A stretch of DNA of 64,000 nucleotides from Gammaproteobacteria bacterium UBA2965 (lineage in GTDB: Bacteria; Pseudomonadota; Gammaproteobacteria; Pseudomonadales; Azotimanducaceae). The stretch is from contig DEBD01000037.1 of NCBI GenBank assembly GCA_002348385.1, positions 129,467 through 193,466 of the forward strand. The letters are read 5' to 3'. Position 1 is the stretch's first letter, and every line of letters begins with the position of its first letter. A model generated the notes under the pieces. The model was given only the letters and a program-made list of their open reading frames with translations, was not told where the DNA came from and searched no databases. Shown here one piece after another: positions 2,968-61,624 of this stretch. Both the position numbers and the translations under genes were made by a program.

Positions 2968-3158
2968 AGCTCTCCCTCCATTTCGTTGTGTTGCAAAGAT
3001 AGCACCGGTGGTGGCGGGGCAAAACTTTTCTCTCCAGGGCCACCTCGTCCGCTGACATGCGCCCGTCAAGCAACGCGCCTGCCTTGAAATCGCGGAACGC
3101 ATCCAAACCCAGATATAGTGGGGTCAAACTTACAAAGCCGGGGTGCAGGACACACAAA

Positions 3159-3533
3159 ATGACACAAGACAGATTGCAGCGCGGAAAAGCCCGCATGAAG
3201 GAATTGTTTGGTGAAAGTCACCAACCGCCAGAGGAACTCCAAGGTGATTTCATTGATATCACGGTGGGACACCTGCTCGGCGATATCTGGACGAGACCCG
3301 GTCTCGAACTGCGCGAGCGTTCCATGATTACGTGTACTGCTCTGATCGTGCTCGGCAACCAATCTGAGCTGAAAGCGCATCTAGCCGCGGCGTTGAATGT
3401 CGGGATTACGCGCCAAGCAATCGAAGAGATGATGATTCACCTGGCGCACTACTCGGGCTGGCCCACCGCCGTAAACGGGCTGCGCATCGCACGTGAACTA
3501 TTCGCGGAACTCGACGCCAAGCCGTCGGCATAG
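3159..3533 (+). CDS. Carboxymuconolactone decarboxylase (CMD) family protein
   Basis: CMD-domain core ERSMITCTALIVLGNQSELKAHL...IEEMMIHLAHYSGWP. Start trimmed to ATG 3159. Confidence 0.85.
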   Translation: MTQDRLQRGKARMKELFGESHQPPEELQGDFIDITVGHLLGDIWTRPGLELRERSMITCTALIVLGNQSELKAHLAAALNVGITRQAIEEMMIHLAHYSGWPTAVNGLRIARELFAELDAKPSA

Positions 3534-5150: not shown

Positions 5151-5252
5151 AGGCAGCCGAACGCTCCAACAAGGGAACGACCGCTAGGCGCTGCCTGGTG
5201 TGGGAACCACGGTAGTGTCCATCTCCTCCGGTTCGAGTCCCAGACAGATGAG
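5151..5252. repeat. Copy B of the diverged direct repeat (copy A at 3561-3657)
   Basis: Covers the last 22 or so codons plus about 30 nt of 3' flank of the CMD-like gene 5184-5699. Confidence 0.7.
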
Positions 5253-5699
5253 CACTTTGGACATGCCGAGGAAAAGCCCCACGCCCAACGCCATCTCGAC
5301 GATTTCCGCATCGCTGAAGTGCGACTTCAGCGCCTGCCTGGATCCGTGGTCCAGGCTGCCGGGCAGCCCGATAATGGCATCGGCCAGTTTGAGGACCGCG
5401 ACTTCCCGATCTGGCAGCACCGACTCGTAACCATCGGCGATGAGGTCAACCTTCTCTTCTCCCAGCCCCGCCACACGGGCGGAGTCAAAACGCACGTTTT
5501 TTCAGTAGCCGCAGTCGGTGATGCGGGCGTTGCGCATTCGGGTCATCTCTTTGAGCTCGTCGGCGACCACACCGCGCTGCCAGAACTCCGCATACAGCTC
5601 GAAGAACCGGCCGGTGGAGGCTGGTGTGTGCATCATCACCGTAGCGAACTGAGCGGGTTGATCGGGGACGGCGGAAGAGATTCTCGGTTTGGTTGACAT
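5184..5699 (-). CDS. CMD/AhpD-like protein with an in-frame TGA (5504-5502) inside its redox motif. Candidate selenoprotein (C-G-Y-U), otherwise a nonsense pseudogene.
   Basis: Track ORFs 5502-5741 and 5184-5495 are in the same frame, separated only by TGA AAA AAC. ATG 5699 lies 6 nt after GGAG. Joined product reads ...RMRNARITDCGY[TGA]KNVRFDSARVAGLGEEKV... Confidence 0.6.
5466..5484 (-). promoter_or_regulatory. Candidate bacterial SECIS-like hairpin 17 nt downstream of the TGA at 5504-5502
   Basis: Minus-strand RNA CUCCGCC-CGUGU-GGCGGGG: a 7-bp stem (one G-U pair) and a 5-nt loop containing GU. A weaker hairpin AAAAC-GUGC-GUUUU (5500-5487) precedes it. Confidence 0.4.
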
Positions 5700-5724: not shown

Positions 5725-6222
5725 TCACGCCAAAGCGCCATTGCTCAGCGGCGGCGCATCCAGCACGCCGGGTTCGGCGGGCAGATCCAGCACCAACCGC
5801 AAGCGGCACGTGACGTCGAAGAAAGCAAGCGCGGTGAGCAACGACACACAGGCAGGTTCCCCAAAAGCCGCCGTCGCCACCTCCACCTGGGCGTCGGTAA
5901 CCTGATGGTGGCCGTAGGGTATTTGTTCGGCGAGCGCCAGCGCGGCTCGTTCCGGGCCGGTAAAACCTTCCACCTCGCCGGCTCGCAGGCGTTCCTGCTC
6001 GTCAGCATCGAGATTCACTTCCGCATCGCGCAGCAACCATTCTGATTCGCAATCATGAATGGCCGCAACTCGCAGTCGGCACAGCTCCAGCACGCGCCGG
6101 GGCACCAGGCCGTCCGCCCAGAAAGAGCCATAGAAGGCCCGGTAGCGCGCGAGCAGTTCCGGCCGGTGGGCCAGTGCAGCTTCCAGCGCGGTGGGTGCTT
6201 GGGTGGCGTCAATCCAGCTCAT
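5725..6222 (-). CDS. Carboxymuconolactone decarboxylase (CMD) family protein
   Basis: CMD core LELCRLRVAAIHDCESEWLL aligns with the TDCGY[TGA] segment of the downstream paralogue. Start trimmed to ATG 6222. Confidence 0.8.
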   Translation of the reverse strand: MSWIDATQAPTALEAALAHRPELLARYRAFYGSFWADGLVPRRVLELCRLRVAAIHDCESEWLLRDAEVNLDADEQERLRAGEVEGFTGPERAALALAEQIPYGHHQVTDAQVEVATAAFGEPACVSLLTALAFFDVTCRLRLVLDLPAEPGVLDAPPLSNGALA

Positions 6223-12972: not shown

Positions 12973-13101
12973 GGCGTTGTCCTTCTTTCAGCGCAACCGC
13001 ACAACCTGCCACATGTTCGCGCCGACCACAATTCCCACACCAGCCGCCTGGCCTGTCCCGAGACATCGGGGTAGTCTTGATCTGAGCGTCGGAGGAAGAA
13101 C

Positions 13102-13797
13102 ATGTCAGCCACAACCAAGTACCAATTAACAAGCGCCTATACGTGACCGTGGGTGCAGCGCGCCGTGATCGTAATGCGCGCCAAAGACGTCGATTTTGAA
13201 GTGACCTACATCAATCTGCGCGACAAGCCGGGTTGGTTCCTGAAGATCTCCCCCCACGGCAAGGTGCCCGTGCTCCAGGTCGATGGCGAGCCCCTGTTCG
13301 AGTCCAACGCTATCGCCGAGTACCTAGATGAGGCGGTGGAACCGCGGCTCCATCCGGTAGACCCGGTCAAACGCGCGCGCAACCGGGCCTGGACTGACTT
13401 TGTGCCCACATTCGCGGGCGCTCTGATGGGCCTGTACTACGGCCGAACGAAAGAAAACGCCGAAGACCGCACCAAGGCTGCGCGCCAGAGGCTCAATCGC
13501 CTCGAGGAAGCCATCGCCAACGAGCGGGGTAACGATGGGCCCTATTTCAACGGCCCGCAGCTTTGCCTGGTAGACGCGGCCTACGCTCCGTTTCTGCAGC
13601 GCTTTCTGATCGTGGAGCAGTGGCTGCAAAGCGGCGTGCTCGACGACTATCCGCTGGTGAATGCCTGGGCCCATGCCCTAGTGGAAAGCGACGTCGTGAC
13701 GGGCTCTGTACCCGACAACTTCATGGAGGAGTTTGAAGGCAACATCCGCAGCATGGCGCCAGAAATCGCGGCGCGGATGGACCGCAAAAGCGCCTAA
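13102..13797 (+). CDS. Glutathione S-transferase with an in-frame TGA (13144-13146) at the catalytic-Cys position. Candidate selenoprotein (U-P-W-V). The segment 13153-13797 is certain.
   Basis: GGAGGA (13091-13096) then ATG 13102. The frame reads MSATTKYQLTSAYT[TGA]PWVQRAVIVMRAKDVDFEVTYINLRDKPGWFLKISPHGKVPVLQ. Confidence 0.65.
13158..13181 (+). promoter_or_regulatory. Candidate bacterial SECIS-like hairpin 11 nt downstream of the TGA at 13144
   Basis: GCGCGC-cgugaucguaau-GCGCGC: a 6-bp all-GC stem and a 12-nt loop containing GU. Confidence 0.4.
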
Positions 13798-13800
13798 ACG

Positions 13801-14757
13801 ATGCAGTTCACCACTCTGGGCCGCACCGGCCTTCGCGTCAGTGTGGCCGGATTGGGCTGCGGCGGCCACAGCCGCCTGGGGCAGTCCTACGGCAACAGCA
13901 CGGCCGACAGTGTAGCCGTGGTGTCTGCGGCGCTGGACGCCGGTATCAACTTCATCGACACCGCAGCCGCCTACCGCACAGAGCAGATCGTGGGAGAGGC
14001 ACTGCAGGGTCGGCGTGAATCCGTGGTCATCTCCACGAAATCCGGCGTGCAGAAGCAGGATCGGGGTACGCGCGAGATGCGGCCCATTGCGCCCGCAGAG
14101 CTGCACAAACGCTTAGACGACAGCCTGTCGCGACTGCGCACTGACTACGTAGACGTATACAACCTGCACGGCGTAGTGGAATCGGAACTCGACTACGCCC
14201 ACAACGAACTGCTGCCTGTGCTACAGGCACAGCAGCAACAGGGCAAGATCCGCTTCCTGGGCATCACCGAGCGGTTCATTGCAGACACGGGGCACGCCAT
14301 GCTGCAGCAAGCGCTGCAAAGCGATGTGTGGGATGTGGTGATGGTGGGATTCAATCTGCTGAACCCTTCTGCTCGAGAACGCGTGCTCAACCGCACCCAG
14401 GCTCAAAACGTGGGGGTTCAGGATATGTTCGCCGTGCGGCGTGCCTTGAGCGACCCTGAAGCGCTGGTCGAAGAAATCCAGATTGCCGTCGCAACCGGAC
14501 AGGTGGACGCTGACGCGGTAGACCTCAAAGACCCCCTGGGAAGCATTCTCGAGCAATCCGGGGCAGCATCCGTCGTGGAGCTTGCCTACCGCTTCTGCCG
14601 CCACGAACCCGGCGTGCAAGTGGTGCTCACCGGCACCGGCAAGATTGAGCACCTGCTGCACAACGTGGACGCTATCAATGGGCCGCCGTTACCAGATCAG
14701 ACTCAGTGCGACCTGGCAGACCTGTTTGGTCGCGTAGACTGCCTGTCGGGAAACTAG
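13801..14757 (+). CDS. Aldo/keto reductase
   Basis: FIDTAAAYRTEQIVGEAL. The ATG lies 3 nt after the GST stop. Confidence 0.9.
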   Translation: MQFTTLGRTGLRVSVAGLGCGGHSRLGQSYGNSTADSVAVVSAALDAGINFIDTAAAYRTEQIVGEALQGRRESVVISTKSGVQKQDRGTREMRPIAPAELHKRLDDSLSRLRTDYVDVYNLHGVVESELDYAHNELLPVLQAQQQQGKIRFLGITERFIADTGHAMLQQALQSDVWDVVMVGFNLLNPSARERVLNRTQAQNVGVQDMFAVRRALSDPEALVEEIQIAVATGQVDADAVDLKDPLGSILEQSGAASVVELAYRFCRHEPGVQVVLTGTGKIEHLLHNVDAINGPPLPDQTQCDLADLFGRVDCLSGN

Positions 14758-14838
14758 TAGAACGAGCGCGTCCGACCCTAAAAATTGCCAACATGACCTA
14801 CGCCTGTTACGTTGGAGCGATTGCGGAGGGAGCAACTC

Positions 14839-16104
14839 ATGAGCGCAGAAACGCTAGCCGCTGGCCAATCCCCCAGCGATTTCAGCTACGTGGATCCGGA
14901 TGTCAACAGCAACCCCTGGGCATTTTTCGAATCCGTCCAGCGCGAGTGCCCCGTCTACCAGATCCCCGAGACCGGCACCTTTATCGTTACCAAGTATGAA
15001 GATCTCAGACACGTACTCCGAAACCATGAAATCTTCTCATCAACTGTGACGGCGAGCGCAACGGGAGGCGATCAGGATATCGGCCAGAAGATTATCCGGG
15101 AGGGCGGCGGCTGGGCCCCGGTCTCGACCCTGCAGCGCACGGATCCGCCTGTTCACGGTCGCTATCGCAAGCTGTTGGATCGCGTATTCACCATCAAGCG
15201 CGTGCGGGAGATGACGCCCTACATCGATCAGGTATCCAACGATCTCATCGACAGCTGGATCGATGCCGGAGAGTGCGAGTTCAACAACGATTTTGCGATG
15301 CCAATGCCGGGCATCATCATCGCCGAGCAGCTCGGGCTGGGCCGGGATGAGGTAGCGCGCTTCAAGCGTTGGGCCGACGCCATGCTGGGGGTGGGCTCGT
15401 CGGGAATGCCTACCGAAGACGACATCCGCGCCAATGCGGAAACGGAACTGGAGGCGCAACTGTATCTGGCGGAGGTTTTCGAGGACCGGCGCCAAAACCC
15501 CAAAGACGACCTGATGTCCGCTTTGGTGCACGCACACGGTGACGACGAAGAACCGCTGACCATGCAGGAACTTCAGAGCCTGATGCACCAACTCATTACG
15601 GGCGGCTTCGAGACCACCCAAAGCGCCATCGACCACGGCATGTGGACCCTGGTGCGATTTCCGGAACTGGTTACCCGCCTGCGCGAAAACGATGCGCTGA
15701 TCAAGCCGTTCATCGAAGAGGTTTTGCGCTGGGAGAGCCCGGTGCAGTTTCTCGCACGCAGGACCACACAGGATGTGGAGCTGTCAGGCACGCTGATTCC
15801 CGAGAATTCCATGGTGATGGTCGGCTACGCGCCGGCCAATCGCGATGCGGACAAGTTCGCCTGCCCTCATCAATTCGACATGGAGCGCAAGAACGTGGGC
15901 GCCCACCTGGCCTTCGGCAGTGGCGCCCATTTCTGCGTGGGTGCCTTACTGGCCCGACAGGAAATGATCTCCGCGTTCCGGTTGCTGGTATCCCGCCTGG
16001 ACAACATCCAGCTGAGCCGCCCGCTGCCAACGCCGGTGCATCACTTCAGCATGTTCTTCCAACCCATGCACGACTTCCATATCGCTTTCGATCGGGCGTC
16101 GTAA
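14839..16104 (+). CDS. Cytochrome P450
   Basis: Heme loop FGSGAHFCVGALLARQE and EVLRWESP (ExxR). Start trimmed to ATG 14839, downstream of GGAGGGAG. Confidence 0.9.
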   Translation: MSAETLAAGQSPSDFSYVDPDVNSNPWAFFESVQRECPVYQIPETGTFIVTKYEDLRHVLRNHEIFSSTVTASATGGDQDIGQKIIREGGGWAPVSTLQRTDPPVHGRYRKLLDRVFTIKRVREMTPYIDQVSNDLIDSWIDAGECEFNNDFAMPMPGIIIAEQLGLGRDEVARFKRWADAMLGVGSSGMPTEDDIRANAETELEAQLYLAEVFEDRRQNPKDDLMSALVHAHGDDEEPLTMQELQSLMHQLITGGFETTQSAIDHGMWTLVRFPELVTRLRENDALIKPFIEEVLRWESPVQFLARRTTQDVELSGTLIPENSMVMVGYAPANRDADKFACPHQFDMERKNVGAHLAFGSGAHFCVGALLARQEMISAFRLLVSRLDNIQLSRPLPTPVHHFSMFFQPMHDFHIAFDRAS

Positions 16105-16131: not shown

Positions 16132-17133
16132 TCACACCGACTTCAAGCGGGGAGCCACCTCGGTAAACAGGCGTTCCAGGCTAGGCGCCATCTGCTCCGC
16201 CCGGAGCCCGGGCGGCACGGCCATAGTAACGATATCTGTTATTCCGAACTCGGCGATGAAAGTGCGCAGCTGCGCCACGCAGCTGTCTACGTCGCCCACC
16301 ACCCAGGTCTGAGGTACGGGATCGCCATCGCCAAACCCCTCACCGCTCTCATCAAAAAACCGCTGATACAGCCGCATGCGGTACCGCTCTGCCGCACGCA
16401 CCACGGGCCAGTCTGCCTCCTTGTCATCGGTAACTAGAACGCTCCGGATGATTCCCACGCGGTGATCAGACGGCGTACGACCCTGAGCACGCACCGCCGC
16501 CACCCATGGATCGAACGACTTGGCCCTCGCCCCCTGAGGAAGAAAGTGTGTACCGTAGCCGGCAGCCCGCAGCGCACCCGGTTCTGACATGGCCGCTATC
16601 CACAAGGGCGGTCCGCCCTCCTGGACGTAGCTGGGCGTGATCTGCACGTCCTCCAATTGGTAGCGCTTACCCTGATAACTGAATCGCTCACCGGTAAAAC
16701 AATGCTGAAGCACCTCAATACCCTCGTTCATGAGGGACACACGCCGGCTTGCCGGTAGGCCGAAGCCCCGGAACTCGTGGGGCGCATAGCCCATCCCCAC
16801 GCCCAGCTCCACGCGCCCGCCCGAGAGGTTATCGAGCACGGCCAGATCCTCCGCCAGGCGTACCGGGTGATTGAACGGCATCAGACAGATGTCGGTGCCA
16901 AAGCGCACCCGTTCGGTCACCGCGGCCATGGCACCAGCCACTGGCACCCAGCTCGGCAGGTAAGCGTCTTCCACAAAGTGATGCTCAGTAAACCAGACCA
17001 GGTCGGCTCCGATGGCATCTAACCAGCGAACCTGCTCCAGCACCTCATCGTACAACTGCCGGTGGCTCACGCCGGAGTCCGGAGGGTTACGAAAGTCGTA
17101 ACACACTCCCATTCGAAGCTCATGCCCATTCAC
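16132..17133 (-). CDS. Luciferase-like monooxygenase (LLM class flavin-dependent oxidoreductase)
   Basis: LDNLSGGRVELGVGMGY. GTG start 7 nt after AAGGAG. Confidence 0.9.
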   Translation of the reverse strand: MNGHELRMGVCYDFRNPPDSGVSHRQLYDEVLEQVRWLDAIGADLVWFTEHHFVEDAYLPSWVPVAGAMAAVTERVRFGTDICLMPFNHPVRLAEDLAVLDNLSGGRVELGVGMGYAPHEFRGFGLPASRRVSLMNEGIEVLQHCFTGERFSYQGKRYQLEDVQITPSYVQEGGPPLWIAAMSEPGALRAAGYGTHFLPQGARAKSFDPWVAAVRAQGRTPSDHRVGIIRSVLVTDDKEADWPVVRAAERYRMRLYQRFFDESGEGFGDGDPVPQTWVVGDVDSCVAQLRTFIAEFGITDIVTMAVPPGLRAEQMAPSLERLFTEVAPRLKSV

Positions 17134-17289: not shown

Positions 17290-18717
17290 ATGGCCAAGAT
17301 CGAGCGCGACCTGCTGGAGTGGCCCGAGCGCACCGAGAGGTCGTTTCCAACACCCGCGTTTATTCCGCGGGTGGGCAACGTTGACCTCGGCCTAGATCGG
17401 CTAGACGGCGAGCGCTACTACTCGCCAGAGTTCATGCAGGCCGAGTGGGACAAGGTGTGGACGAAAACCTGGCAGCTGGCGGCGCGCGTCGACGAGTTCT
17501 CCGAACCCGGCGCTTTCTACGTGCACGAACTCGGAAAGGAGTCGTTCCTCTTCGTCAGAGGCGACGACGACGAGATTCGCGGCTTCTACAATTTGTGCCA
17601 GCACAGGGGCAACGTGCTGTGCCAGGCCGATACCGGGGTGCTCGACACCTTTACTTGCCCTTTCCACGGCTGGCAGTGGAACAACGATGGAACACTCAAA
17701 CGCGCGGCAGGAGCCGAACTGTTCCGCCAGTTCGACAACGGCATTCCCACCGAAGAGCTTGGCTTGCCGGCGGTGAAAGTGGACACCTGGGGCGGCTGGT
17801 TGTGGTTCAACATGGACCTGGAAGCAATTCCGGTAAAGGACTACCTTGGAGAAGCGGGTCGACAGCTCGAAGTGTACGGGTTTGAGGGCTGGCACCTGAT
17901 CAACTACCAGACGTTCGAGTGGAACGGCAACTGGAAGCACGCGTGGGATGCGTTCAACGAGAGCTATCACTTCGCGGAACTGCACCCGGACATGATTGAA
18001 TTCGGCGAAGGGCACGACATTCCAATCGAACTGCTCGGCATCCACTCAAGGATGCTCAACTTCAATCGTACGGTGAGCCAGGTTGTCGAAGATCGGGACA
18101 CCATGACGGACCTGCGCGCACACATGATGCTCAGAGCTCAAGAAGGCTGGCGGGACAAAGAGACCGCTTCTTTCAGCGGCAAGGCAAAAGACGTGCACCT
18201 CGAGGAAATTCGCCACCGTCGCTCCATCGAAGAAGACACCTACCTGCCTTACAAGCAGATGAATGACGAGCAATTGGTGCACCAGTACCACTACAGCTTC
18301 TTTCCCGGTGCCACGATGACACAGACCCCGGAAGGGGGCGCAGTCTTTCGCTACCGACCGCACGCTACCGACCCGAACATTTGCTACTACGACTTCTTCA
18401 TCCTGGCCCACCTTCCGCCCGGCATACCAAAGATAGAAAGGCCCCCACACCGCGTGCATCGTCACGTGGATGGCATCGACTATGCCGCGGCATTCGGAAA
18501 CACCTTCGACCCGATCCTGGCCAACGTGCTGCGACAGGACGGCTCCAACATGACTACCATGCAGGCAGGCGTTAAGTCGGATGCCTTCAAGGGTATGATC
18601 CTTTGCGATCAGGAGCTGCGGATCCGGCACTTTCACATGATGATCGACGAGTTCATCGCCGGCAGCATAACCACCGACAGCCTGCCGCCCGGTGATGCAT
18701 ATCTGCTAAAGGACTGA
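17290..18717 (+). CDS. Rieske [2Fe-2S] oxygenase, alpha subunit
   Basis: CQHRG...CPFHGWQW. Paralogous to 55763-57115. Confidence 0.9.
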   Translation: MAKIERDLLEWPERTERSFPTPAFIPRVGNVDLGLDRLDGERYYSPEFMQAEWDKVWTKTWQLAARVDEFSEPGAFYVHELGKESFLFVRGDDDEIRGFYNLCQHRGNVLCQADTGVLDTFTCPFHGWQWNNDGTLKRAAGAELFRQFDNGIPTEELGLPAVKVDTWGGWLWFNMDLEAIPVKDYLGEAGRQLEVYGFEGWHLINYQTFEWNGNWKHAWDAFNESYHFAELHPDMIEFGEGHDIPIELLGIHSRMLNFNRTVSQVVEDRDTMTDLRAHMMLRAQEGWRDKETASFSGKAKDVHLEEIRHRRSIEEDTYLPYKQMNDEQLVHQYHYSFFPGATMTQTPEGGAVFRYRPHATDPNICYYDFFILAHLPPGIPKIERPPHRVHRHVDGIDYAAAFGNTFDPILANVLRQDGSNMTTMQAGVKSDAFKGMILCDQELRIRHFHMMIDEFIAGSITTDSLPPGDAYLLKD

Positions 18718-18778: not shown

Positions 18779-19390
18779 ATGGCTAACACAACACTCTACG
18801 GCGTATCGGGATCGCGAGCGATCCGTTCCATTTGGGCCATCGAAGAGGTCGGCATTGAGTACGAGCACGTGCCAGTGCACTTTCGAAACGCTTCCACGGA
18901 TATCGACTACCTGAAGGTCAATCCCAACGGCCGTATCCCGGCCTTGGTGGATGGCGACCTGGTGCTGTGCGAATCCATGGCCATCAACCTGTATCTGGCC
19001 AAGACCTATGGAGGCGATCTGTATCCAGACAATCCAGCCGATGAAGCCCAGACCATTCAGTGGAGCGTATGGGCCATCAGCGAGATCGAGCCCGTGCAGA
19101 TGCGCGCGGTGATTCACAAGTTCTTCGTTCCCGCCGATCAGCAGGACCCGGCCGTGATCGAGGAGGCAGCCAAGGATCTGCAGCGCCCGCTCAAAGTGCT
19201 GGACGCCCACTTGGCGGAGCGCCAGTATCTATTGGGTGATCGTTTCACCATCGCCGACCTGAATCTGTCCGGCGTCATGCTGCTGCTGAACATGGTTGGT
19301 CAGGACTACTCTGAGCACACGCAGGTGAAGCGCTGGGCCGACGCATGCTACGCCCGCCCATCCCTGGCGGCGGCCCAGGCGAAAGATTAG
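18779..19390 (+). CDS. Glutathione S-transferase (Ser/Tyr type, no recoding)
   Basis: NPNGRIPALVDGDLVLCESMAINLYL and a C-terminal GST helical domain. Confidence 0.9.
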   Translation: MANTTLYGVSGSRAIRSIWAIEEVGIEYEHVPVHFRNASTDIDYLKVNPNGRIPALVDGDLVLCESMAINLYLAKTYGGDLYPDNPADEAQTIQWSVWAISEIEPVQMRAVIHKFFVPADQQDPAVIEEAAKDLQRPLKVLDAHLAERQYLLGDRFTIADLNLSGVMLLLNMVGQDYSEHTQVKRWADACYARPSLAAAQAKD

Positions 19391-51261: not shown

Positions 51262-54200
51262 TCAGCCGCCGTCGGCCCCCACGGCGATCACCTCATCTCC
51301 CCGCGCGGCGCGACGCCGACGCAGATAGGCGAACCAGTCTTCCATGATCATATAGAGGGAAGGAATCAGCAGCAGCGTAATGAAAGTGGCGAACAGGACA
51401 CCGAACGCCAGCGATACTGCAACCGGCACGATGAACCCGGTCGCCATGCTAGCGGTCGCGATCAATGGCAACAAGCCAAGGAACGTAGTCACAGAGGTCA
51501 GCAGTATGGGACGAAACCGGACCACACCGGCCATGGTGACTGCATCGAGCAGCCCAATGCCTTCCCGCCGCTGGCGATTGACGTAGTCCACCAGCACAAG
51601 GCTGGAGTTCACCACCACGCCGGACAGCGCCACCATGCCGATGATGGACGGGAATACCAACTTAAACCCGGTGACGTAGTGACCGAGAATCGCACCCACC
51701 GCGCCGAACGGGATGACGCTCATAATCACCAGGGGTTGGATGTAGGATTTAAGCGGGATCGCCAGTAGCGCGTAGATAATCAGAAGCGCCAGCGGCAACA
51801 GCATGAGCAGCCCCTGCATGGACTTCAGGCGCTCCTCCAACTCACCCGACACGCTAGAGCGCAGGCCGGGATACTTCGCAAATAGCCGCGGCAGGATTTC
51901 CATCTGCACGGTCTGGGCAATCTCTTCAGGCTGCGCCACCGAGCGATCGATGTCTCCCGTGACGGTCACCACCCGCCGGCGGTCATAGCGCGAGATATTG
52001 CTGTAGCCCCTTCCCAGCGACACCTCCGCTACGCTGGCAAAGGGCACCTCGGTGCCGTTGCGTGTGCGAATTCGCATGTCTTCCAGATCACCCAGCGAGC
52101 GTCGCTCGGATTCCGGATAACGAACCATGACCCGCACGTCATCCGTGCCGCGCTGGATTCGTTGGGCCTGCTCGCCATAAAAGGCCTGGCGCACCTGGTA
52201 TCCCAGATCATTGAGGGTGAGCCCCAGCGTCTTGGCCTCAGGCTTGATCGCGAGCTTCACTTCTTGCTTGCCCGCGCGAAAAGAGTCCGCAACATCGAAC
52301 ACACCATCAAAGCGACTGAGCTCCGCCCGCAATTCCGCCGCCGCCATACGCAAGTCTTCGACGTTACGCGCGGTAAGCTGAAACGACAGCGGCTTGCCGA
52401 AGCTGAATGCGTCCGCGGTAAAGGTGAGCTCCACGGCATCGGTAACCGAACCAGTAAGCTCGCGCCAGCGATTCGCCAGTTCCTTGGTGCTCATCCCGCC
52501 CCGCTCGCCGGGCGGCGCGAATTCAATGGCAACCTCGGCATAGTGCGAGACACCGGCGTTGGCGCCGACGAAACCAGGACCCCCACCCCGCCCCACCCAG
52601 GTGCCGACGGAGGTCAGCACATGCTTCATCGCCGGCGGATCGTCAGCATCCAGCTGACCCTGCACCTCTTCACCCAGCAAACGTGCACCCCGCTCGATAC
52701 GCTTGGTTGCCTCTACGGTCCGCTCAACGGCCACGCCTTCCGGCATGGTGAGAGACGCAAAGATGTGGTTGCCTTCAACAGACGGGAAAAATCCGAACAC
52801 AATGCGCCCCGACATGACCATCCCCATGGTCACAAACAGCACCGCCAATCCGCACATCAATGTGAGGTAGCGCCACTCGACGCAACGCAATAGGAACGGC
52901 CGATAGCGGTCACTGGCGAAGTGCTCAAGCCCGAGCGCCAAGCGCTCCTGCAGGGCGGTCCAGCGGGCCACGAAAGCGTTGGGTTCGCCCGCACTAGACG
53001 CCTTTCTGTGGGCCAGATGGGAAGGCAGGATCAGCTGCGACTCCACCAGGCTGAATACCAGGCAGACAACCACAACGAAGCCTACGATCAGGAAGATTCC
53101 CCCAAGGCGACCGGCGCCCAACAGCAATGGGATGAATGCGGCTACGGAGGTGAGCACGCCGAATATGACCGGCAGCACCACCTCATGAGTGCCAGCTATG
53201 GCCGCGTGCTCCTGGCTCTCAGCACTGCGCTCATGAGCGTAGATCCGCTCGCCCACCACGATGGCATCGTCCACCACGATGCCAAGGGCAAGCAGAAAGC
53301 CCACCACCGACATGGAGTTGATGGAAAGCCCCGCGATGGGAAACAGGATGGCAGGCGCCAGCAGCGCCACCAGAATGCCCACCGCCACCCAGAAAGCGAG
53401 CCGAAAGCGCAGGAACACCGTAAGCACGATGAGCACCAGAAGCAGTCCGCCCGCCGCATTGCCTACCAGAGCATCCAGGCGCGTACGCAACTCCTCCGAG
53501 CCATCGAGCCAGATGGTCATGTGAATGCCGTCCGGCAGCACGCGTTGCTTCTCTGCCATATACGCTTTCACACGCTCAGCAATATCGATCAGATCTTCCT
53601 CGCCCACGCGAAACACCCGAATCATCACCGCGGGCTCGCCGTCGAAACGTACGCGAAGGTCGCCTTCCTGAAAGCCGTCGACGATATTGGCGATCTCGCT
53701 CAGCAACAGATTCGTGCCGTCTGCCCGAGTGAGCACCACGATGTCTTCGAACTCCTGCCCCCGATAGGCCTGGCCCTTGGTGCGCAGGAGAATCTCGCCA
53801 CCCCGGGTTTTGATAGAGCCGCCCGGCATGTCCAATGAAGATCGGCGGATGGCGTCGGCCACCTGGCCCAACGTGAGGTCGTGGCGCCGAAGAGTTTGCT
53901 CCGAGACCTCCACCGAGATCTCGAATGGCCTCGTGTAGTCAAGCTCTACCTGTGAAACGTTTTCCAGGGCGGCAATGTCCTCACGCACCTCCTGACCAAT
54001 AAGCTTCAGCGTGTACTCATCGGCGTTGCCGTGAATGGCAATGTCCAATACCGTGTTGCGAAATATCAGGGCCGACACGATGGGTTTTTCGGTCTCTACC
54101 GGCAGCGTAATGATGCCGTCCACCTTGGACTTGATGTCGTTCAGCGCCCGGTTGGTGTCGTAGGACTCTTCCAGCGTCACCGACATGGAGCACATGCCTT

Positions 54201-54462
54201 CCGCCGCGGTGGTGTTGATGTGCTGAATCCCCTCGGAGCCTTCTATGGCTTCTTCCACCCGGATGCAGACGCCCTCCTCCACCTCCACAGGAGCAGCCCC
54301 AAGATAGGGCACCGAGATTCGAATGATCTTCGGATCGATGTTGGGAAAATCTTCCTGGTGGCGTGTCGCCAGCGACCCTAAGCCCCCGATGATCAGCACC
54401 CACATGAGCAGGTTCGCTGCGACAGGGTTCCTCACAAACCAGGCAATGGGGCCACTGCCCAC
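51262..54462 (-). CDS. RND efflux transporter permease (AcrB/AcrD/AcrF family)
   Basis: 1066 aa. N-terminus IAWFVRNPVAANLLM. The GTG start overlaps the adaptor gene's stop by 1 nt. Confidence 0.95.
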   Translation of the reverse strand: MGSGPIAWFVRNPVAANLLMWVLIIGGLGSLATRHQEDFPNIDPKIIRISVPYLGAAPVEVEEGVCIRVEEAIEGSEGIQHINTTAAEGMCSMSVTLEESYDTNRALNDIKSKVDGIITLPVETEKPIVSALIFRNTVLDIAIHGNADEYTLKLIGQEVREDIAALENVSQVELDYTRPFEISVEVSEQTLRRHDLTLGQVADAIRRSSLDMPGGSIKTRGGEILLRTKGQAYRGQEFEDIVVLTRADGTNLLLSEIANIVDGFQEGDLRVRFDGEPAVMIRVFRVGEEDLIDIAERVKAYMAEKQRVLPDGIHMTIWLDGSEELRTRLDALVGNAAGGLLLVLIVLTVFLRFRLAFWVAVGILVALLAPAILFPIAGLSINSMSVVGFLLALGIVVDDAIVVGERIYAHERSAESQEHAAIAGTHEVVLPVIFGVLTSVAAFIPLLLGAGRLGGIFLIVGFVVVVCLVFSLVESQLILPSHLAHRKASSAGEPNAFVARWTALQERLALGLEHFASDRYRPFLLRCVEWRYLTLMCGLAVLFVTMGMVMSGRIVFGFFPSVEGNHIFASLTMPEGVAVERTVEATKRIERGARLLGEEVQGQLDADDPPAMKHVLTSVGTWVGRGGGPGFVGANAGVSHYAEVAIEFAPPGERGGMSTKELANRWRELTGSVTDAVELTFTADAFSFGKPLSFQLTARNVEDLRMAAAELRAELSRFDGVFDVADSFRAGKQEVKLAIKPEAKTLGLTLNDLGYQVRQAFYGEQAQRIQRGTDDVRVMVRYPESERRSLGDLEDMRIRTRNGTEVPFASVAEVSLGRGYSNISRYDRRRVVTVTGDIDRSVAQPEEIAQTVQMEILPRLFAKYPGLRSSVSGELEERLKSMQGLLMLLPLALLIIYALLAIPLKSYIQPLVIMSVIPFGAVGAILGHYVTGFKLVFPSIIGMVALSGVVVNSSLVLVDYVNRQRREGIGLLDAVTMAGVVRFRPILLTSVTTFLGLLPLIATASMATGFIVPVAVSLAFGVLFATFITLLLIPSLYMIMEDWFAYLRRRRAARGDEVIAVGADGG

Positions 54463-55613
54463 TAGGCGTCTACCTCGTCATCCGAACGGGCACTGACGCG
54501 CATACCTTCCACCACCGTCTGCAGCGGAGAAATACAGACGCGCTCACCGGCATTCAAACCTGAGACGATATAGACCTTGTTGCGGTACACCCGAAGCAGC
54601 TCAACGTCGCGGTATTGCAGGCGATCCTGGTCGTCCAAGATGAGCACGCGGTCGTCGTTGCGCATGGCACCCCGGGGCAGCACAACAATCCCGTCAGCCG
54701 AACGCCCCTCGATGTCGGCTCTGACAAATTGCCCTACGCGCAACGGTGAGGTCATCCTCACGTTTTCTACTCGCGCAACCAGATGCACCATCCGACTCTG
54801 CGCGTCGATTTCCGCCTCGGCGCGCACCACCCGGGCGGCCCACTCGTGTTCTTGCCCCCCATACAGCGCGCGCAGCGTGGCGCCCGGCGCTACGGCAGCC
54901 TCGAACTCCCCTATATGTGACAGCGGAATGTTGAGGTAGGCAAGCTGCTCGTCTGCGATGGGCAGACGAACTTCCACGGAGTCAGTGGCGTACACCGTAG
55001 CAATGCGATTTCCGCGATTGACAAATTGTCCCACGTCCACATTCTTGCTGCGGACCAACCCGTTGAAGGGCGCGCGAATGTTGGTTCTCTCGTGATCAAG
55101 CTTCGCGCGCTCCAGGGCAAATCGCGCATCGTCCAGATTTGCGGCCGAAATGCGCGCCACCCTCAGGGCATTTTCCATCTGGGAGCGGCTGGCCAACTGG
55201 CGGGACTCCAATTGCTCCAACCGGCGCAGCTCGAAGCGCGCGTGCTCATTGTCTGCCCGAGCCCGCTGCAGCGCCGCTCGCGCCCGCCCCGCGGCAGCAG
55301 CGTAATCCCGCTCGTCGATGCGCAGCAGCAGCTCACCCTCGTGGAACGCGCCACCAGAAACGAGGGTAGGAGAAATCCATACGACCTTGCCTGCCACCTC
55401 CGGCACGAGATCAGACTCGGTGCGGGGAGCGGCCGTACCCTGGGAATGCACCACCATTCGCACTTGCTGGGGCGTCACCTCGGTCACACGCACCGCGGTG
55501 GGGATCGCTTCCGGCCTTGTGGGTTGCACACGCGCACTGGTGGCCAGCAGGCTGATGGTTGCCAATAAGGTAGCGACCACAACAGCCGCCGGGAGGGCGA
55601 CTTTCAACCGCAT
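54462..55613 (-). CDS. RND efflux periplasmic adaptor (membrane fusion protein)
   Basis: Coiled-coil hairpin and beta-barrel pattern. AAGGAG lies 8 nt before the ATG. Confidence 0.9.
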   Translation of the reverse strand: MRLKVALPAAVVVATLLATISLLATSARVQPTRPEAIPTAVRVTEVTPQQVRMVVHSQGTAAPRTESDLVPEVAGKVVWISPTLVSGGAFHEGELLLRIDERDYAAAAGRARAALQRARADNEHARFELRRLEQLESRQLASRSQMENALRVARISAANLDDARFALERAKLDHERTNIRAPFNGLVRSKNVDVGQFVNRGNRIATVYATDSVEVRLPIADEQLAYLNIPLSHIGEFEAAVAPGATLRALYGGQEHEWAARVVRAEAEIDAQSRMVHLVARVENVRMTSPLRVGQFVRADIEGRSADGIVVLPRGAMRNDDRVLILDDQDRLQYRDVELLRVYRNKVYIVSGLNAGERVCISPLQTVVEGMRVSARSDDEVDA

Positions 55614-55762: not shown

Positions 55763-57115
55763 TTACTTCCTACCCGGCGGGTTTCCATTCAGGTAGTCGT
55801 GAAGCACTTCATGGAAGCGTCGTACACGAGTTTCCTGGTTGGCAAGATAAGGCTCCTGGTAGCCACGAGAACGCCAACCGGTAGTCTGCCCTGCATTAAG
55901 CTGCCAGTCCTGGAAGACGACCTGGTCGTCTAAGTCCTGCACACCGTTGCCGTTGTCGTACTCGCGGTAGTCGTACTCAGCCTCTTCGAACTTCAGCCCA
56001 TAACGGGCCGTGCGGTGGACATAGGATTCGACACCTTCCACCGGATAAGCCATAGACCACTCGTCAAAGAAGCATTTCTCTGGATCTGTGGGATGGGGCT
56101 CCCACCGAAACACACCAAAGCCATCCGCAGATGCCCCAAACGCGATGTTGGGGAAGATGGTGGTAAAAGGGCTTTCCGTGAGCTCCTCGTCAGTTAGGTT
56201 CTCGTAATGGAGATGGCCCTTCTCTTTCCAGAGTTTTCGTTTGGCCGCCTTCAGATCCAGCCATCCTTGGATGGCCTTGGTCTCGTAGTCAGGATATTCA
56301 TTCGGATCGATACCCCAATATTCGAGCTCCCGATCCCACGGGTGAGGCTCGCCTTCCGGCACCCGATCGCGAACCGATGGGCGGCCCATCTGCACGATTC
56401 GATTGTTGCCCATGGGATACATCTCGTAGTACGAGGAAAAGTGATCCTGGTCGATGATGGGCGGCACCTGAGGGTGCGCGGTGCGAGTATGGTACGACTC
56501 ATTGAAGTTGTCGGACCAGAACTTCCAATTGCACTCCAGCGCCACCCGAATCCACCGGGCTCGCACGGTTTTTTCAAACTGGTGGTTTTTGTAGATCTCT
56601 GGCCAAGGCTCTAAATACTTGTACAAGTCTGGGGCCTCATCATCCATGGTGTACCACACCAGGCCTGCCCAGGTATCCACGCGCACTTCCACGAGGCGTA
56701 TCTTGCCCACCGGATCTTCCGGGTAGTCATCTCGGTCGCATGCATCGAGCAGCGAACCATCCATGTCCCACTTCCAGCCGTGGTACGGACAGAACAGGCT
56801 CTCCTGCGAGCCATACTGTCCCCACACCAATCGTTGTGCCCGGTGGCCGCAGGCGTTGTAAAAACCTTTGAGGGAACCATCTTTCTGCTTTGCGATAATT
56901 ACCGACTCATGCATGAAATCATGCACGATGTAGTCGCCGGGCTCCTGCAGCTGCTGCTCACGCCCTGCAATGTGCCAGATCTTGGTCCACAGCTGGTCCC
57001 ATTCCTTCTCCATCCACTCCTTGCTGTAGTAGCGCTCGGGAGTGATCGGATCACCGCGCAGATTAGTGCGGTCTTTACCGTCCATGGCCAATGGATGCTT
57101 GAGCGCGTCGTTCAT
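55763..57115 (-). CDS. Rieske [2Fe-2S] oxygenase, alpha subunit
   Basis: CGHRA...CPYHGWKW. Confidence 0.9.
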   Translation of the reverse strand: MNDALKHPLAMDGKDRTNLRGDPITPERYYSKEWMEKEWDQLWTKIWHIAGREQQLQEPGDYIVHDFMHESVIIAKQKDGSLKGFYNACGHRAQRLVWGQYGSQESLFCPYHGWKWDMDGSLLDACDRDDYPEDPVGKIRLVEVRVDTWAGLVWYTMDDEAPDLYKYLEPWPEIYKNHQFEKTVRARWIRVALECNWKFWSDNFNESYHTRTAHPQVPPIIDQDHFSSYYEMYPMGNNRIVQMGRPSVRDRVPEGEPHPWDRELEYWGIDPNEYPDYETKAIQGWLDLKAAKRKLWKEKGHLHYENLTDEELTESPFTTIFPNIAFGASADGFGVFRWEPHPTDPEKCFFDEWSMAYPVEGVESYVHRTARYGLKFEEAEYDYREYDNGNGVQDLDDQVVFQDWQLNAGQTTGWRSRGYQEPYLANQETRVRRFHEVLHDYLNGNPPGRK

Positions 57116-57502: not shown

Positions 57503-59929
57503 ATGATGCGTAGCCGAATATTACAGATTGCAATCAGTGCGGCCGTTCTTGCCGCCATAGTCGTTATAGACACTGTCCCGATACAAGCCGCCGAAATCGA
57601 AGAAATTATCGTCACCGCTCGTAAGCGGGAGGAGTCGCTGCAAGACGTTCCCGTAGCCATTCAAGCGATAACCAGAGAGAAAATTGAGCGCTACGACGCC
57701 GACAATCTCTCGGAAATCGCCGACATGGCCAACAACGTGATCATCGCGGGTGGCACCAATGGCGCAGGCGGGTCATTCATCATCCGCGGGCTCGGTTCTA
57801 ACGCCGGGGATTCAGGAATCTCCGCTAGCGTGGCGACTAACATAGACGGTGTGCAGTCGGAACGAGGCTTTATCGCTCGCACCGCGTTCTTCGACGTGGA
57901 ATCGGTGCAATTCCTCAAGGGACCTCAGGCACTTTTCTTCGGCAAGAATAGCCCGGCCGGCGTGGTAGGTGTGGTAACCGCCAACCCCAGCGACCAATTT
58001 GAAGCCAAGGTCAGTGTTGGCTACGAACCGGAAGCGAACGAGCAGGTCTATGAGGGGATGATCTCGGGCCCGCTGACCGACACCTTGGGCGCGCGCCTGG
58101 CGTTTCGCTACACCGATATCGGTGGCTGGATCAAGAACAATGCGGAATTTGTGGAGAACAGCAACGGCGAGGCAATTCAGGGCACTGCCGACAATCCTTT
58201 CATGGTATTGGGTTTCTGGCCCGCCGACGAGAGCTACTATGACTTGCCCGGCGCCACTAGGGATATTGGCGAGGTAACCGCAATAACGGCACGCCTTACC
58301 TTAGAGTGGAACCCTACCGATAATTTTCGCGCGCGCGCCAAACTCACAATCGCCGACGAGGAAAGCGATGGCTTGGTGGCTGGTGAATTCGCAAGTTGCA
58401 CCGACCCGACCAATCCCAGGGTCGCGCCCATCGCCCGACCCATCCTGTCGTCGCCGAACCATGACTGCAAGTTGAACAATCAAACGTCCCAGGGAAACCT
58501 GCCTCCAGAGGTGGCGGCAGGCTGGAATAACAATCAAAACGGCGAGTTGGGCGACGGCTATTTCAGTAATTACGAAGCCCAGATATTCACACTGGATCTG
58601 CAGTACCAGCAGGATTGGGGAACGATCAACGCAGTCACCGGTTACTTGGCCTACGATTTCGACGGTTGGGACAATTTTGGCGGTTTGGACTACCCCTTCT
58701 TCGTCGGCTTCAATCCGGATGACCACGAACAGTTTTCTCAGGAAATTAGACTCGCTACGACCCTGGATAGCCCGTTCAACTTCATGATCGGTGCTTATTA
58801 CGAAACTTTTGAACGCCAACACGAAAACGCCAGCAAGCTGGGATTGTTCGGGCGCGATCCTGTAAGAGGATTCACCAACGACCAACACGTAGTCCAGTTT
58901 ACCGAGGGCGATGCCTGGTCGGTATTCGGACAGGTGATTTGGGACATTACCGATCAGTGGGAACTTGCAGCGGGCTTGCGCTACGTTGACGACGAAAAAG
59001 ACGGAACTCAGCGTCACGAATATGTGCACCCATTCTTGGCCATCATAGGCTGGTATCCTGAAGGGGTAGACATCGTCGCCGGCACAAGCGACACCGATGT
59101 CGCCCCGGAGGTTACCCTGACATGGCGCCCGAATGCCGATGTCACGGTATGGGGTGCATGGAAAAATGGCTACAAGGCTGGCGGCTACTCAGCCCCCACG
59201 GTGCTAACCAATACATTCGGACCTGACAACATTACCTTTGGTGAGGAAGACGCCGAGGGTTTCGAGATTGGCGTGAAAACGACCCTGTTGGAAGGCCGTA
59301 TGCGCCTGAATATCACTGCCTACGACTATGAGTTCAGAGATCTTCAGGTAAGCCAATTCCGCCCAGAGACGACGACCTTCGTCATCGGGAATGCGGCATC
59401 AGCATCCACAAAAGGCATCGAATTCGACGTGGCTTTTCAGGCTACAGATCAACTTCAGCTGTATGCCGAGTTTGGTTTTAACAACGCCAAACAGGATAGC
59501 TATCCGAATGTTGCCTGCTATGCCTTCCAAACCGTGGAAGCGGGCTGTATCGATGGCTTCCAGGACCTTAGCGGGAAGAGACTGGCAAACGCACCGAAAC
59601 TAACCGGTTCTATGGGATTCGAGTTTGTCCGGCCCGTAGGCGCTAACTGGATCGCGACGATTTCGGGTGAAACCATTTATACCGACAAATACAAAACCGC
59701 GGCCAATGGCGAGCCCCGCGCGGTGCAGCCCAGCTTCTGGCGCCTTCGCGCCAGAGCCGGAATATCGAGCGCGGACGGCACGTGGGACTTCTCTGTAATC
59801 GGCCGTAATCTCACAGACAAGATTTGGCCAATCGGGGGGGCACGCCCAGGCGCGCTTACTACCGCTGACCAGGGTGGAGGCGGCAACAGACCGCGCTCGA
59901 TCCTGTTTCAGGCGACTTATAGGATCTAA
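57503..59929 (+). CDS. TonB-dependent receptor
   Basis: Signal peptide, plug region IEEIIVTARKREESLQDVPVAIQAI, long beta-barrel with an aromatic-rich C-terminus. Confidence 0.95.
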   Translation: MMRSRILQIAISAAVLAAIVVIDTVPIQAAEIEEIIVTARKREESLQDVPVAIQAITREKIERYDADNLSEIADMANNVIIAGGTNGAGGSFIIRGLGSNAGDSGISASVATNIDGVQSERGFIARTAFFDVESVQFLKGPQALFFGKNSPAGVVGVVTANPSDQFEAKVSVGYEPEANEQVYEGMISGPLTDTLGARLAFRYTDIGGWIKNNAEFVENSNGEAIQGTADNPFMVLGFWPADESYYDLPGATRDIGEVTAITARLTLEWNPTDNFRARAKLTIADEESDGLVAGEFASCTDPTNPRVAPIARPILSSPNHDCKLNNQTSQGNLPPEVAAGWNNNQNGELGDGYFSNYEAQIFTLDLQYQQDWGTINAVTGYLAYDFDGWDNFGGLDYPFFVGFNPDDHEQFSQEIRLATTLDSPFNFMIGAYYETFERQHENASKLGLFGRDPVRGFTNDQHVVQFTEGDAWSVFGQVIWDITDQWELAAGLRYVDDEKDGTQRHEYVHPFLAIIGWYPEGVDIVAGTSDTDVAPEVTLTWRPNADVTVWGAWKNGYKAGGYSAPTVLTNTFGPDNITFGEEDAEGFEIGVKTTLLEGRMRLNITAYDYEFRDLQVSQFRPETTTFVIGNAASASTKGIEFDVAFQATDQLQLYAEFGFNNAKQDSYPNVACYAFQTVEAGCIDGFQDLSGKRLANAPKLTGSMGFEFVRPVGANWIATISGETIYTDKYKTAANGEPRAVQPSFWRLRARAGISSADGTWDFSVIGRNLTDKIWPIGGARPGALTTADQGGGGNRPRSILFQATYRI

Positions 59930-60046: not shown

Positions 60047-61624
60047 ATGGCTACGTCGCAGAAAGCCCTGCGCACCATCGACGACCCGTTCCACGCGCTG
60101 CTTGAGGCCGACACCCACGCCAGCAATATCACCTCGGCCATGCACGTCGACAATCCCATCGAGCCGGGTCCCGCACTCATCGACAAGAACCGCTACATCT
60201 CGCGCGAATACCACGAGCTAGAGAAGAAGCACCTGTGGTCACGCGTGTGGCAGCAGGCTGCACACGAAGACGACTTTCCCAATGTGGGTGATGTGGTGCC
60301 CTACGACATTGTCGACCAATCATACCTAGTGGTTCGTATTGGGGAGGACGAGTACAAGGCCTATCACAATGCTTGCCTGCACCGTGGGCGCAAGCTCCGT
60401 GAATCCCGCGCCAAGGGACTCGATGAATTGCGCTGCGCGTTCCACGGCTGGGCATGGGAATTGGACGGCAGCCTCAAGCAGGTGCCTTGTGCATACGACT
60501 ACACGGACTTGGATCGGGAGGCGGAAAGCCTGCCGGAAGTAAACATCGGCCGTTGGGGCCGTTACATCTTCATCAACCCGGATCCGAACTGCGAGCCGCT
60601 GGAAGAATATCTGGGCGACCTGTCCGGCGAGTTCGAGGTTTTTCCCTATGAACGCCGCTACAAGCGCGCCCACGTATCCAAAGTGATTCGCGCCAACTGG
60701 AAGGTGGTCCAGGAAGCATTCATGGAATCGTACCATGTGCTACTCACACATCCCCAGGGTCTTAGCGGCGGGGCCAACGACATGTGCACGAAATATGACG
60801 TGTTCGGTAACTACTCGCGCGCGATACGCACGGGCGCACTGGACGGTGCGGGCGTTCCGGAGTGGGAAGAGCTGCCTGACACCGGAAACGCCGTGCTCCG
60901 CCATCCGCTCAACGGCATGGTCTACGAAGACGCGGGCAACGAAACCGTCCGGGTCACCACACCCAAGGGATTGAGCGGCCTGTTCACAGCCAAGGGCAAA
61001 TATATCGAAGGCGAGCTCAAGGACGCCAATCAACATCTGTGCATTCTCGTGGGCGGCCGCAAGGTGGCAGGCGTCTCGCTTACCCAAGGTGCCATGGCAA
61101 GAGTGCCCGAAAACGAAGCAGCGCGAATGATGGAGAAGCTGGGCAACAACGCCTCCCCGCGAGCTTTAGCGGCAGAGTCCATGCGGCAAGGTCTAGCCGA
61201 AGTAATACCTTCGGTCGCCGACACGATTCCAGACGTTGAGCTAACGTCATCCATATATCTCACTGTGTTCCCCAACTTCCACCCCTGGGGCTCATTCAAC
61301 GAGATCAACTACCGCTTCCGGCCCAACGGCGACAACCACGAAGAATGCATCATGGAAGTAATGATGATGGCCCCCATGCCCGACGACGGAAACTTTGAGC
61401 CCACGCGGGAGATCCGCTACCTGGACATAGACGACGATTTTGTCGAGGCGGAAGCCGAGCTGGGTGGATTGGGCCCTGTGTTCAATCAGGACACGCTCAA
61501 TATGCCATTCGTACATCAGGGCATGAAGGCGAGCGCAAGGACTCACACACGGCTTGCGGAATATAACGAAACCAAGCTGCGCCACTTCCACGGTCTCTAC
61601 GACAAATGGGTAGACCTGAAGTAA
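60047..61624 (+). CDS. Rieske [2Fe-2S] oxygenase, alpha subunit
   Basis: CLHRG...CAFHGWAW. Shares FPNFHPWG..INYRFRPNG with 685-2043. Confidence 0.9.
   Translation: MATSQKALRTIDDPFHALLEADTHASNITSAMHVDNPIEPGPALIDKNRYISREYHELEKKHLWSRVWQQAAHEDDFPNVGDVVPYDIVDQSYLVVRIGEDEYKAYHNACLHRGRKLRESRAKGLDELRCAFHGWAWELDGSLKQVPCAYDYTDLDREAESLPEVNIGRWGRYIFINPDPNCEPLEEYLGDLSGEFEVFPYERRYKRAHVSKVIRANWKVVQEAFMESYHVLLTHPQGLSGGANDMCTKYDVFGNYSRAIRTGALDGAGVPEWEELPDTGNAVLRHPLNGMVYEDAGNETVRVTTPKGLSGLFTAKGKYIEGELKDANQHLCILVGGRKVAGVSLTQGAMARVPENEAARMMEKLGNNASPRALAAESMRQGLAEVIPSVADTIPDVELTSSIYLTVFPNFHPWGSFNEINYRFRPNGDNHEECIMEVMMMAPMPDDGNFEPTREIRYLDIDDDFVEAEAELGGLGPVFNQDTLNMPFVHQGMKASARTHTRLAEYNETKLRHFHGLYDKWVDLK

Follow-up and report, generated by a model that had tools for sequence, protein, structure and literature searches.

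The 64,000-nucleotide stretch of Gammaproteobacteria bacterium UBA2965 analysed here (contig DEBD01000037.1; hereafter the window, meaning the whole of this stretch) very probably encodes, at 13102-13797 on the forward strand, a 231-residue Cys-type, omega-like glutathione S-transferase (GST) whose predicted catalytic residue is selenocysteine (Sec), specified by the UGA codon at 13144-13146. This reading is drawn from sequence comparison. It is carried by the structure of the gene, by the alternation of Cys and TGA codons at one position among its relatives, by conservation on both sides of that position, and by a downstream hairpin whose conservation is specific to the TGA (Sec) forms, all of which are directly observed. 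Selenium incorporation, binding by SelB and the kind of substrate are what we infer from them. The features on which the argument turns are listed below in window coordinates.

13091..13096, forward strand: Shine-Dalgarno-like GGAGGA, followed by a 5-nt spacer and ATG 13102 (direct reading)
13102..13797, forward strand: full coding sequence of the predicted GST-like selenoprotein, 231 codons, TAA stop at 13795-13797, predicted Sec at codon 15
13144..13146, forward strand: predicted Sec codon, an in-frame TGA where Cys-type GSTs have their catalytic Cys, immediately ahead of helix alpha1
13153..13797, forward strand: GTG-started open reading frame (ORF) of 214 amino acids from the mechanical ORF list, starting at residue 18
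13158..13181, forward strand: hairpin resembling a Sec insertion sequence (SECIS), arms GCGCGC at 13158-13163 and 13176-13181, six G-C pairs
13164-13175, forward strand: loop of this hairpin, CGUGAUCGUAAU, 12 nt, beginning C-G-U-G

A complete GST reading frame across the TGA codon

From ATG 13102 the frame reads MSATTKYQLTSAYT, then the TGA at 13144-13146, then PWVQRAVIV, and in other genomes a Met stands at the equivalent place, 12-14 codons 5′ of the TGA. An earlier, sequence-only reading had pointed out the GGAGGA, the 5-nt spacer, the ATG, the TGA, the GTG-started ORF and, 11 nt after the TGA, the GCGCGC/GCGCGC hairpin with its 12-nt loop; on direct inspection of the window every one of these features lies where it had been placed. 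That reading had also taken the gene for a Sec-containing Cys-type GST and not for a truncated one, a view that is borne out by the match to the Pfam family GST_N_3 from the first position of the profile, by the catalytic-Cys column and by the frequency of the TGA among related genomes, each of which is described in the following.

When U is replaced by C, residue 9 of the 231-residue product aligns with the first position of the GST_N_3 profile, and GST_N_2, GST_N and three models for the GST C-terminal domain are matched as well; read through the TGA, the gene gives a complete GST. Of the proteins with solved structures, Leishmania TDR1 (4ags, E 5e-29) and GST omega-1 and omega-2 (E ~1e-22) come closest to it in sequence. 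In the alignment, the U of the window's U-P-W falls on the catalytic Cys (C-P-F) of GSTO1 and TDR1, and the same column holds the Cys of T-C-P-W-V-Q-R in the full-length homologues. Alignment with Cys-containing homologues had been proposed as a check on the sequence-only reading, and it places Cys in this column, never Trp or Gly, with the full-length homologues starting upstream of the TGA.

The protein that was modelled is P0029, a Cys homologue 71% identical to the window product (AlphaFold, mean predicted local distance difference test score, pLDDT, 93.6). In this model strand beta1 (residues 5-10) precedes Cys13, which stands one residue ahead of helix alpha1 (residues 14-25), and these elements correspond to residues 7-12, 15 and 16-27 of the window protein. 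Because the GTG-started ORF begins at residue 18, a product started at V18 would lack both beta1 and the catalytic residue, and its alpha1 would be short of the first turn. The Foldseek neighbours of the model are Tau GSTs, Omega GSTs and TDR1, with template modelling (TM) scores of 0.76-0.81, and across the family alignment V55-P56 and E67-S68, at the glutathione site, never vary.

With GSTO1, GSTO2 and TDR1 the window protein shares a thioredoxin-like N domain joined to a helical C domain (TM 0.75-0.80), and it keeps the cis-Pro and E-S motifs that form the glutathione site of omega GSTs and TDR1. It differs from them in having predicted Sec for Cys and in an overall identity of only ~25-28%, and it lacks the N-terminal extension of omega GSTs (~19 residues, packing against the C-terminal helix), query residue 10 aligning with GSTO1 residue 27 and beta1 running from about residue 7. 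Since this extension is lacking, the protein is best described as omega-like and Cys-type, not as strictly omega-class; Ser-type GSTs of the Tau class are as near to it in fold as the omega GSTs are. By analogy with GSTO1, TDR1 and DHAR, a selenolate just before alpha1, adjoining the glutathione site (V55-P56, E67-S68), would attack a glutathionylated or oxidised substrate to give an enzyme Se-SG intermediate, which a second glutathione would then resolve, and an enzyme working in this way would be a thiol-transferase or reductase, not a conjugating GST.

By length, the 120 closest database proteins form two groups. Those of 231-233 amino acids begin M..YHLISSxTCPWVQRAVI, and those of 205-221 amino acids begin VQRAVI, VIVLRAK or MRAK, just past the Cys, about half of the closest database relatives being truncated in the manner of the window protein. 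Public records annotate a truncated GST, the public protein P0001 being the 214-residue product; this ORF from GTG 13153 is a gene-caller artefact that arises from taking the TGA as a stop.

At the DNA level the comparison comprised the 80 best-matching species-representative genomes, all of them metagenome-assembled genomes (MAGs) of Alpha- and Gammaproteobacteria, out of 556 genome hits overall. The TGA stands at exactly the same codon in 69 of the 80, and TGT or TGC takes its place in the other 11. Within the window's own species it is present in six of six independent assemblies (ENA ERZ27286373, ERZ23498633, ERZ23498664, ERZ23498660 and ERZ17293375; NCBI GCA_001757145.1), which show a Q/H polymorphism upstream. 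Upstream of the TGA, the TGA forms keep the residues of K-Y-H-L-I-S-S-x-T at 91-100%, apart from Ile (75%) and the variable x, and synonymous entropy at the codons for these residues is 0.65-1.6 bits. Downstream of the TGA the sequence is conserved throughout. A conserved peptide written in varying codons means that the codons ahead of the TGA are translated in one frame with those that follow it; judged from these alignments, selection at the protein level spans the TGA. On a neighbour-joining ordering most of the Cys forms fall in one clade and two stand apart, and this scatter implies several switches between Sec and Cys.

A downstream hairpin conserved with the TGA codon

The stem that was tested pairs columns 15-20 of the alignment with columns 33-38, and the 70 TGA forms read TGA CCN TGG GTN CAG CGC GCC GTG ATY NNN NTG CGY GCN. 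Stem cells are paired in 99.1% of instances across 56 distinct TGA sequences, as against 81.8% in the 11 Cys-bearing ones, nine of which have at least one broken stem pair, and the loop residues G13165 and U13166 (G22 and U23) are invariant in all 70 TGA forms. Synonymous entropy of codons +4 to +7 (Q, R, A, V) is as low as 0.19, 0, 0.19 and 0.19 bit in the TGA forms, compared with 1.0-2.1 bits where Arg, Ala and Val are encoded elsewhere in these genes. In the Cys forms codons +4 to +7 vary (CGC/CGG/CGA; GTC/GTG/GTT), and Fisher tests of TGA against Cys forms give p = 1.5e-6 for codon +5 and 8.5e-6 for codon +7. In two related loci (L064, 5985-6032; L070, 1781-1828) three synonymous changes within the hairpin occur together (CAG to CAA, GCC to GCG, GTG to GTC); their hairpins fold shifted by one register and retain G22-U23.

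The bacterial SECIS model (bSECISearch, Zhang & Gladyshev) expects a spacing of 16-37 nt between UGA and loop and a stem of 4-16 bp (PMC13188914, Fig. 2), together with a loop of 3-9 nt, a G in the first two loop positions and a minimum free energy (MFE) of at most -7.5 kcal/mol (PMC13188914). The window hairpin resembles it in spacing (17 nt), stem (6 bp) and MFE (-10.8 kcal/mol), in having G then U at loop positions 2 and 3, and in lying within the coding region directly 3′ of the UGA. Set against the bSECIS model, a check suggested by the sequence-only reading, the hairpin agrees in spacing, stem, loop G-U and energy, and departs from it in the length of the loop, which is taken up below. 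By extension from established bacterial Sec biology, the hairpin, whose first GCGCGC copy starts 11 nt past the TGA, would act as a bacterial SECIS: SelB carrying GTP and Sec-tRNASec would bind it, and at a ribosome standing on the UGA, Sec would be inserted instead of the chain being released.

Probable selenocysteine decoding and its alternatives

The window contains a second gene interrupted in the same manner:

5184-5699, reverse strand: AhpD/YciW-like predicted selenoprotein gene (ATG 5699 to TAG 5184), 171 amino acids, TGA at 5502-5504

Gene callers split it into ORFs of 65 and 103 amino acids. Its product would read ...RITDCGY-U-KNVRFDSAR..., a CxxU motif set in D-C-G-Y-U-K-N-V-R-F, and at the TGA position 36 of 38 full-length homologues have C-x-x-C, mostly C-G-[FY]-C; among the top 120 homologues, 82 are truncated calls that start [MV]RFDSAR. 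Two other genomes (loci L089-L092) have this TGA in their AhpD-like gene, where the sequence is conserved both before and after it, and the three genes share a hairpin, CUCCGCY-CGUGY-GGCGGGG, 18 nt 3′ of the TGA. The loop start C-G-U-G is common to the AhpD-like and the GST genes. Like the known AhpD-like or YciW-like CxxU selenoproteins, the predicted protein has CxxU where its alkylhydroperoxidase-family homologues have CxxC; it differs from them in belonging to a distinct subgroup of ~171-181 amino acids with D-C-G-[FY]-[CU]-K-N-V-R-F, which scores below the curated cut-offs, the NCBIfam matches to TIGR01926 and to NF053654 ('YciW-related (seleno)protein') being weak and sub-cut-off. Two redox genes with a TGA at the redox Cys within 8 kb present the picture expected of a Sec-decoding organism, and it is on this ground that we infer Sec decoding here. 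A scan of the window for further TGA-split ORFs by GC content at third codon positions was noisy, and showed a redox motif only in the AhpD-like gene.

Immediately upstream of the AhpD-like gene, on the same strand, lies an ORF without a Pfam match (5725-6222, reverse strand, ~165 amino acids). Equivalent ORFs precede the AhpD-like gene at L089 (2291-2788, ~165 amino acids) and at L092 (2316-2765, 149 amino acids), which suggests that the ORF and the AhpD-like gene form a conserved pair. Selenoproteins with a carboxymuconolactone decarboxylase (CMD) domain exist; the CMD-family gene of the window (3057-3533, forward strand), which is similar to the 4-carboxymuconolactone decarboxylase PcaC (TIGR02425, E 2.5e-23, below cut-off), has no in-frame TGA and hence is not a selenoprotein.

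Several results weigh against selenocysteine decoding of the GST gene. The genes selA, selB, selC and selD were not found in the 64-kb window or in the 10 kb on either side; a selC nested inside selB has been reported from Alpha- and Gammaproteobacteria. ARAGORN found no tRNA-Sec in the window, which is without any tRNA gene, or in 60 related loci, and tblastn over 1.52 Mb of related loci gave no match to a Sargasso SelD fragment or to approximate probes for E. coli SelA and SelB. As for the hairpin, its conserved loop is 12 nt long and so exceeds the 3-9 nt of the bacterial SECIS model; extra pairs that would reduce it to 4 nt (C13164-G13171 and G13165-C13170) are present in the window and not family-wide. 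A subset of real SECIS elements departs from the consensus model (review PMC13188914). Rfam gave no match across the whole window at the gathering threshold, and in 13080-13260 at E up to 10 no SECIS family appeared, only a chance match to a snoRNA. Folding of the single sequence is no better than that of dinucleotide shuffles (z = +0.93 for 13144-13190; z = -0.55 for 13155-13184), and because these z-scores are non-significant the significance of the hairpin comes from comparison across genomes only. In that comparison no pair shows compensatory double changes: one pair alternates between G-C (26) and G-U (30), and three are invariant. The support for the hairpin, as read from the alignment, is Sec-specific conservation, not covariation. 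From the literature, a 2026 review describes nearly all selenoprotein families found by bioinformatics as functionally largely uncharacterised (PMC13188914), and our literature search returned no experimental study of a Sec-GST and no selenium-incorporation data for members of the family.

The missing machinery in the window, its 10-kb flanks and the related loci is what favours the view that the UGA is translated, though not as Sec, whether by near-cognate reading as Trp or Cys, by Cys recoding through a tRNASec-like molecule, or under a reassigned code. We regard this as very unlikely. The homologous column holds Cys and never Trp or Gly, a TGA-linked hairpin at SECIS distance would be the signature of SelB-dependent recoding, and two different redox genes of one window with TGA at the redox-active Cys follow the classic selenoprotein pattern. 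A reassigned code in particular was considered and rejected: TGA is the terminator of 13 of the 46 long ORFs in the window, so that the genetic code is standard.

Less probable again, to the point of being hardly credible, is a nonsense mutation or pseudogene, the alternative that the sequence-only reading had itself raised, in which the interrupted gene would yield nothing functional or translation would restart at GTG 13153 to give a truncated GST. The TGA is indeed one substitution away from TGC or TGT, an in-frame GTG follows two codons past it, and the 214-residue product is what gene callers and public records annotate. A chance mutation does not account for a TGA shared by 69 of 80 species-level genomes and by six assemblies of the window species, nor for 12-14 upstream codons that are conserved at the protein level with synonymous variation and kept in frame; the product restarted at V18 would have neither beta1 nor the catalytic residue and would miss the start of alpha1, and the conservation of the hairpin is tied specifically to the TGA. 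That the TGA is a sequencing or assembly error for a true TGC or TGT is a negligible prospect, the single-base distance between the codons being all that speaks for it, against the identical TGA in contigs of six separate samples or assemblies and in other genomes.

Family, genomic setting and implications

A Sec-containing GST of this kind has been on record since Zhang, Fomenko & Gladyshev (2005) listed 'Glutathione S-transferase' (COG0625) among 15 new selenoprotein families of the Sargasso Sea (PMC1088965). The supplement of that study gives AACY01041448 as MTSKYHLISFVT-U-PWVQRAVIVLRAK... and AACY01726075 as MAKNIHLISSVT-U-PWVQRAVIVLRTK... (PMC1088965), and to the latter the window protein is 68% identical over 152 residues. 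The Sargasso family shares with the window protein its N-terminal ...HLISSVT-U-PWVQRAVIVLR... (PMC1088965), the DNA downstream in AACY01041448 (TGA CCA TGG GTC CAG CGT GCC GTG ATA GTT TTG CGC GCA) is like that of the window gene, and both come from a marine proteobacterial setting. The window protein has the marks of the U-P-W-V-Q-R subgroup, namely GST N- and C-terminal domains and a predicted Sec directly before P-W-V-Q-R at ~12-14 residues from the N-terminus, and it lies outside the second, unrelated Sec-GST subgroup (RR-U-PYAIRAR) of the 2005 set (PMC1088965). There is no essential difference from the Sargasso family: the window gene, carried by a Gammaproteobacteria-type MAG, adds one more full-length member to a family known since 2005, and the finding is correct, not new. 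Twelve Sec-GSTs against 1,036 Cys homologues were counted in the Global Ocean Sampling (GOS) study, and a 'GST-like' selenoprotein is listed in reviews of 2022 and 2026 (PMC9312934, PMC13188914). What is added here is a corrected gene model, evidence that predicted Sec prevails in the closest relatives, a hairpin conserved specifically in the Sec forms, and a second predicted selenoprotein gene.

Near the Sec-GST gene lie genes for an aldo/keto reductase, a P450, a luciferase-like monooxygenase, a Rieske oxygenase and a second, ordinary GST. The TAA at 13795-13797 is separated by 3 nt from ATG 13801 of the aldo/keto reductase gene (13795-13803), which suggests that the two genes are co-transcribed in this genome; a promoter and terminator scan gave nothing exceeding chance. 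Pairing of the Sec-GST with an aldo/keto reductase recurs in one of the 80 related genomes (L008), where the two are non-adjacent. The aldo/keto reductase, P450 and acyl-CoA ligase neighbours are not conserved, no flanking family occurring in more than ~10 of 80 loci, and because the neighbourhood is not conserved it offers no firm clue to the substrate. The ordinary GST (203 amino acids, 18779-19390, forward strand), 5 kb downstream, has GST_N and GST_C domains and no in-frame TGA.

Taken as a whole the window is dense in oxygenases, with four Rieske ring-hydroxylating alpha subunits, two P450s and luciferase-like monooxygenases, and it resembles a catabolic island directed at hydrophobic substrates (685-2043, 16132-17133 and 55763-57115 on the reverse strand; 14812-16104, 17290-18717, 60047-61624 and 61663-62985 on the forward strand). 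It also holds CoA-transferases, an acyl-CoA ligase, a TonB-dependent receptor (57506-59929) and a resistance-nodulation-division (RND) efflux pump (51262-55613).

We tentatively propose, as a possibility somewhat short of an even chance, that Sec is dominant and perhaps ancestral in this subfamily, and that the hairpin belongs to an atypical SECIS class (6-bp GC stem, 12-nt loop beginning C-G-U-G) kept nearly base for base across Alpha- and Gammaproteobacteria. If this is true, a laterally spread Sec-GST cassette would be at hand, together with a lineage-specific motif for SelB recognition, and the population of systematically mis-annotated Sec-GSTs would lie far above the 12 counted in GOS. 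Re-annotation would restore a complete enzyme, and the family would offer a natural Sec/Cys pair for asking what selenium adds to omega-type GST catalysis. The presence of two predicted selenoenzymes, one GST-like and one AhpD-like, amid oxygenases suggests that marine Proteobacteria which degrade hydrocarbons or lipids carry out thiol redox chemistry dependent on selenium.

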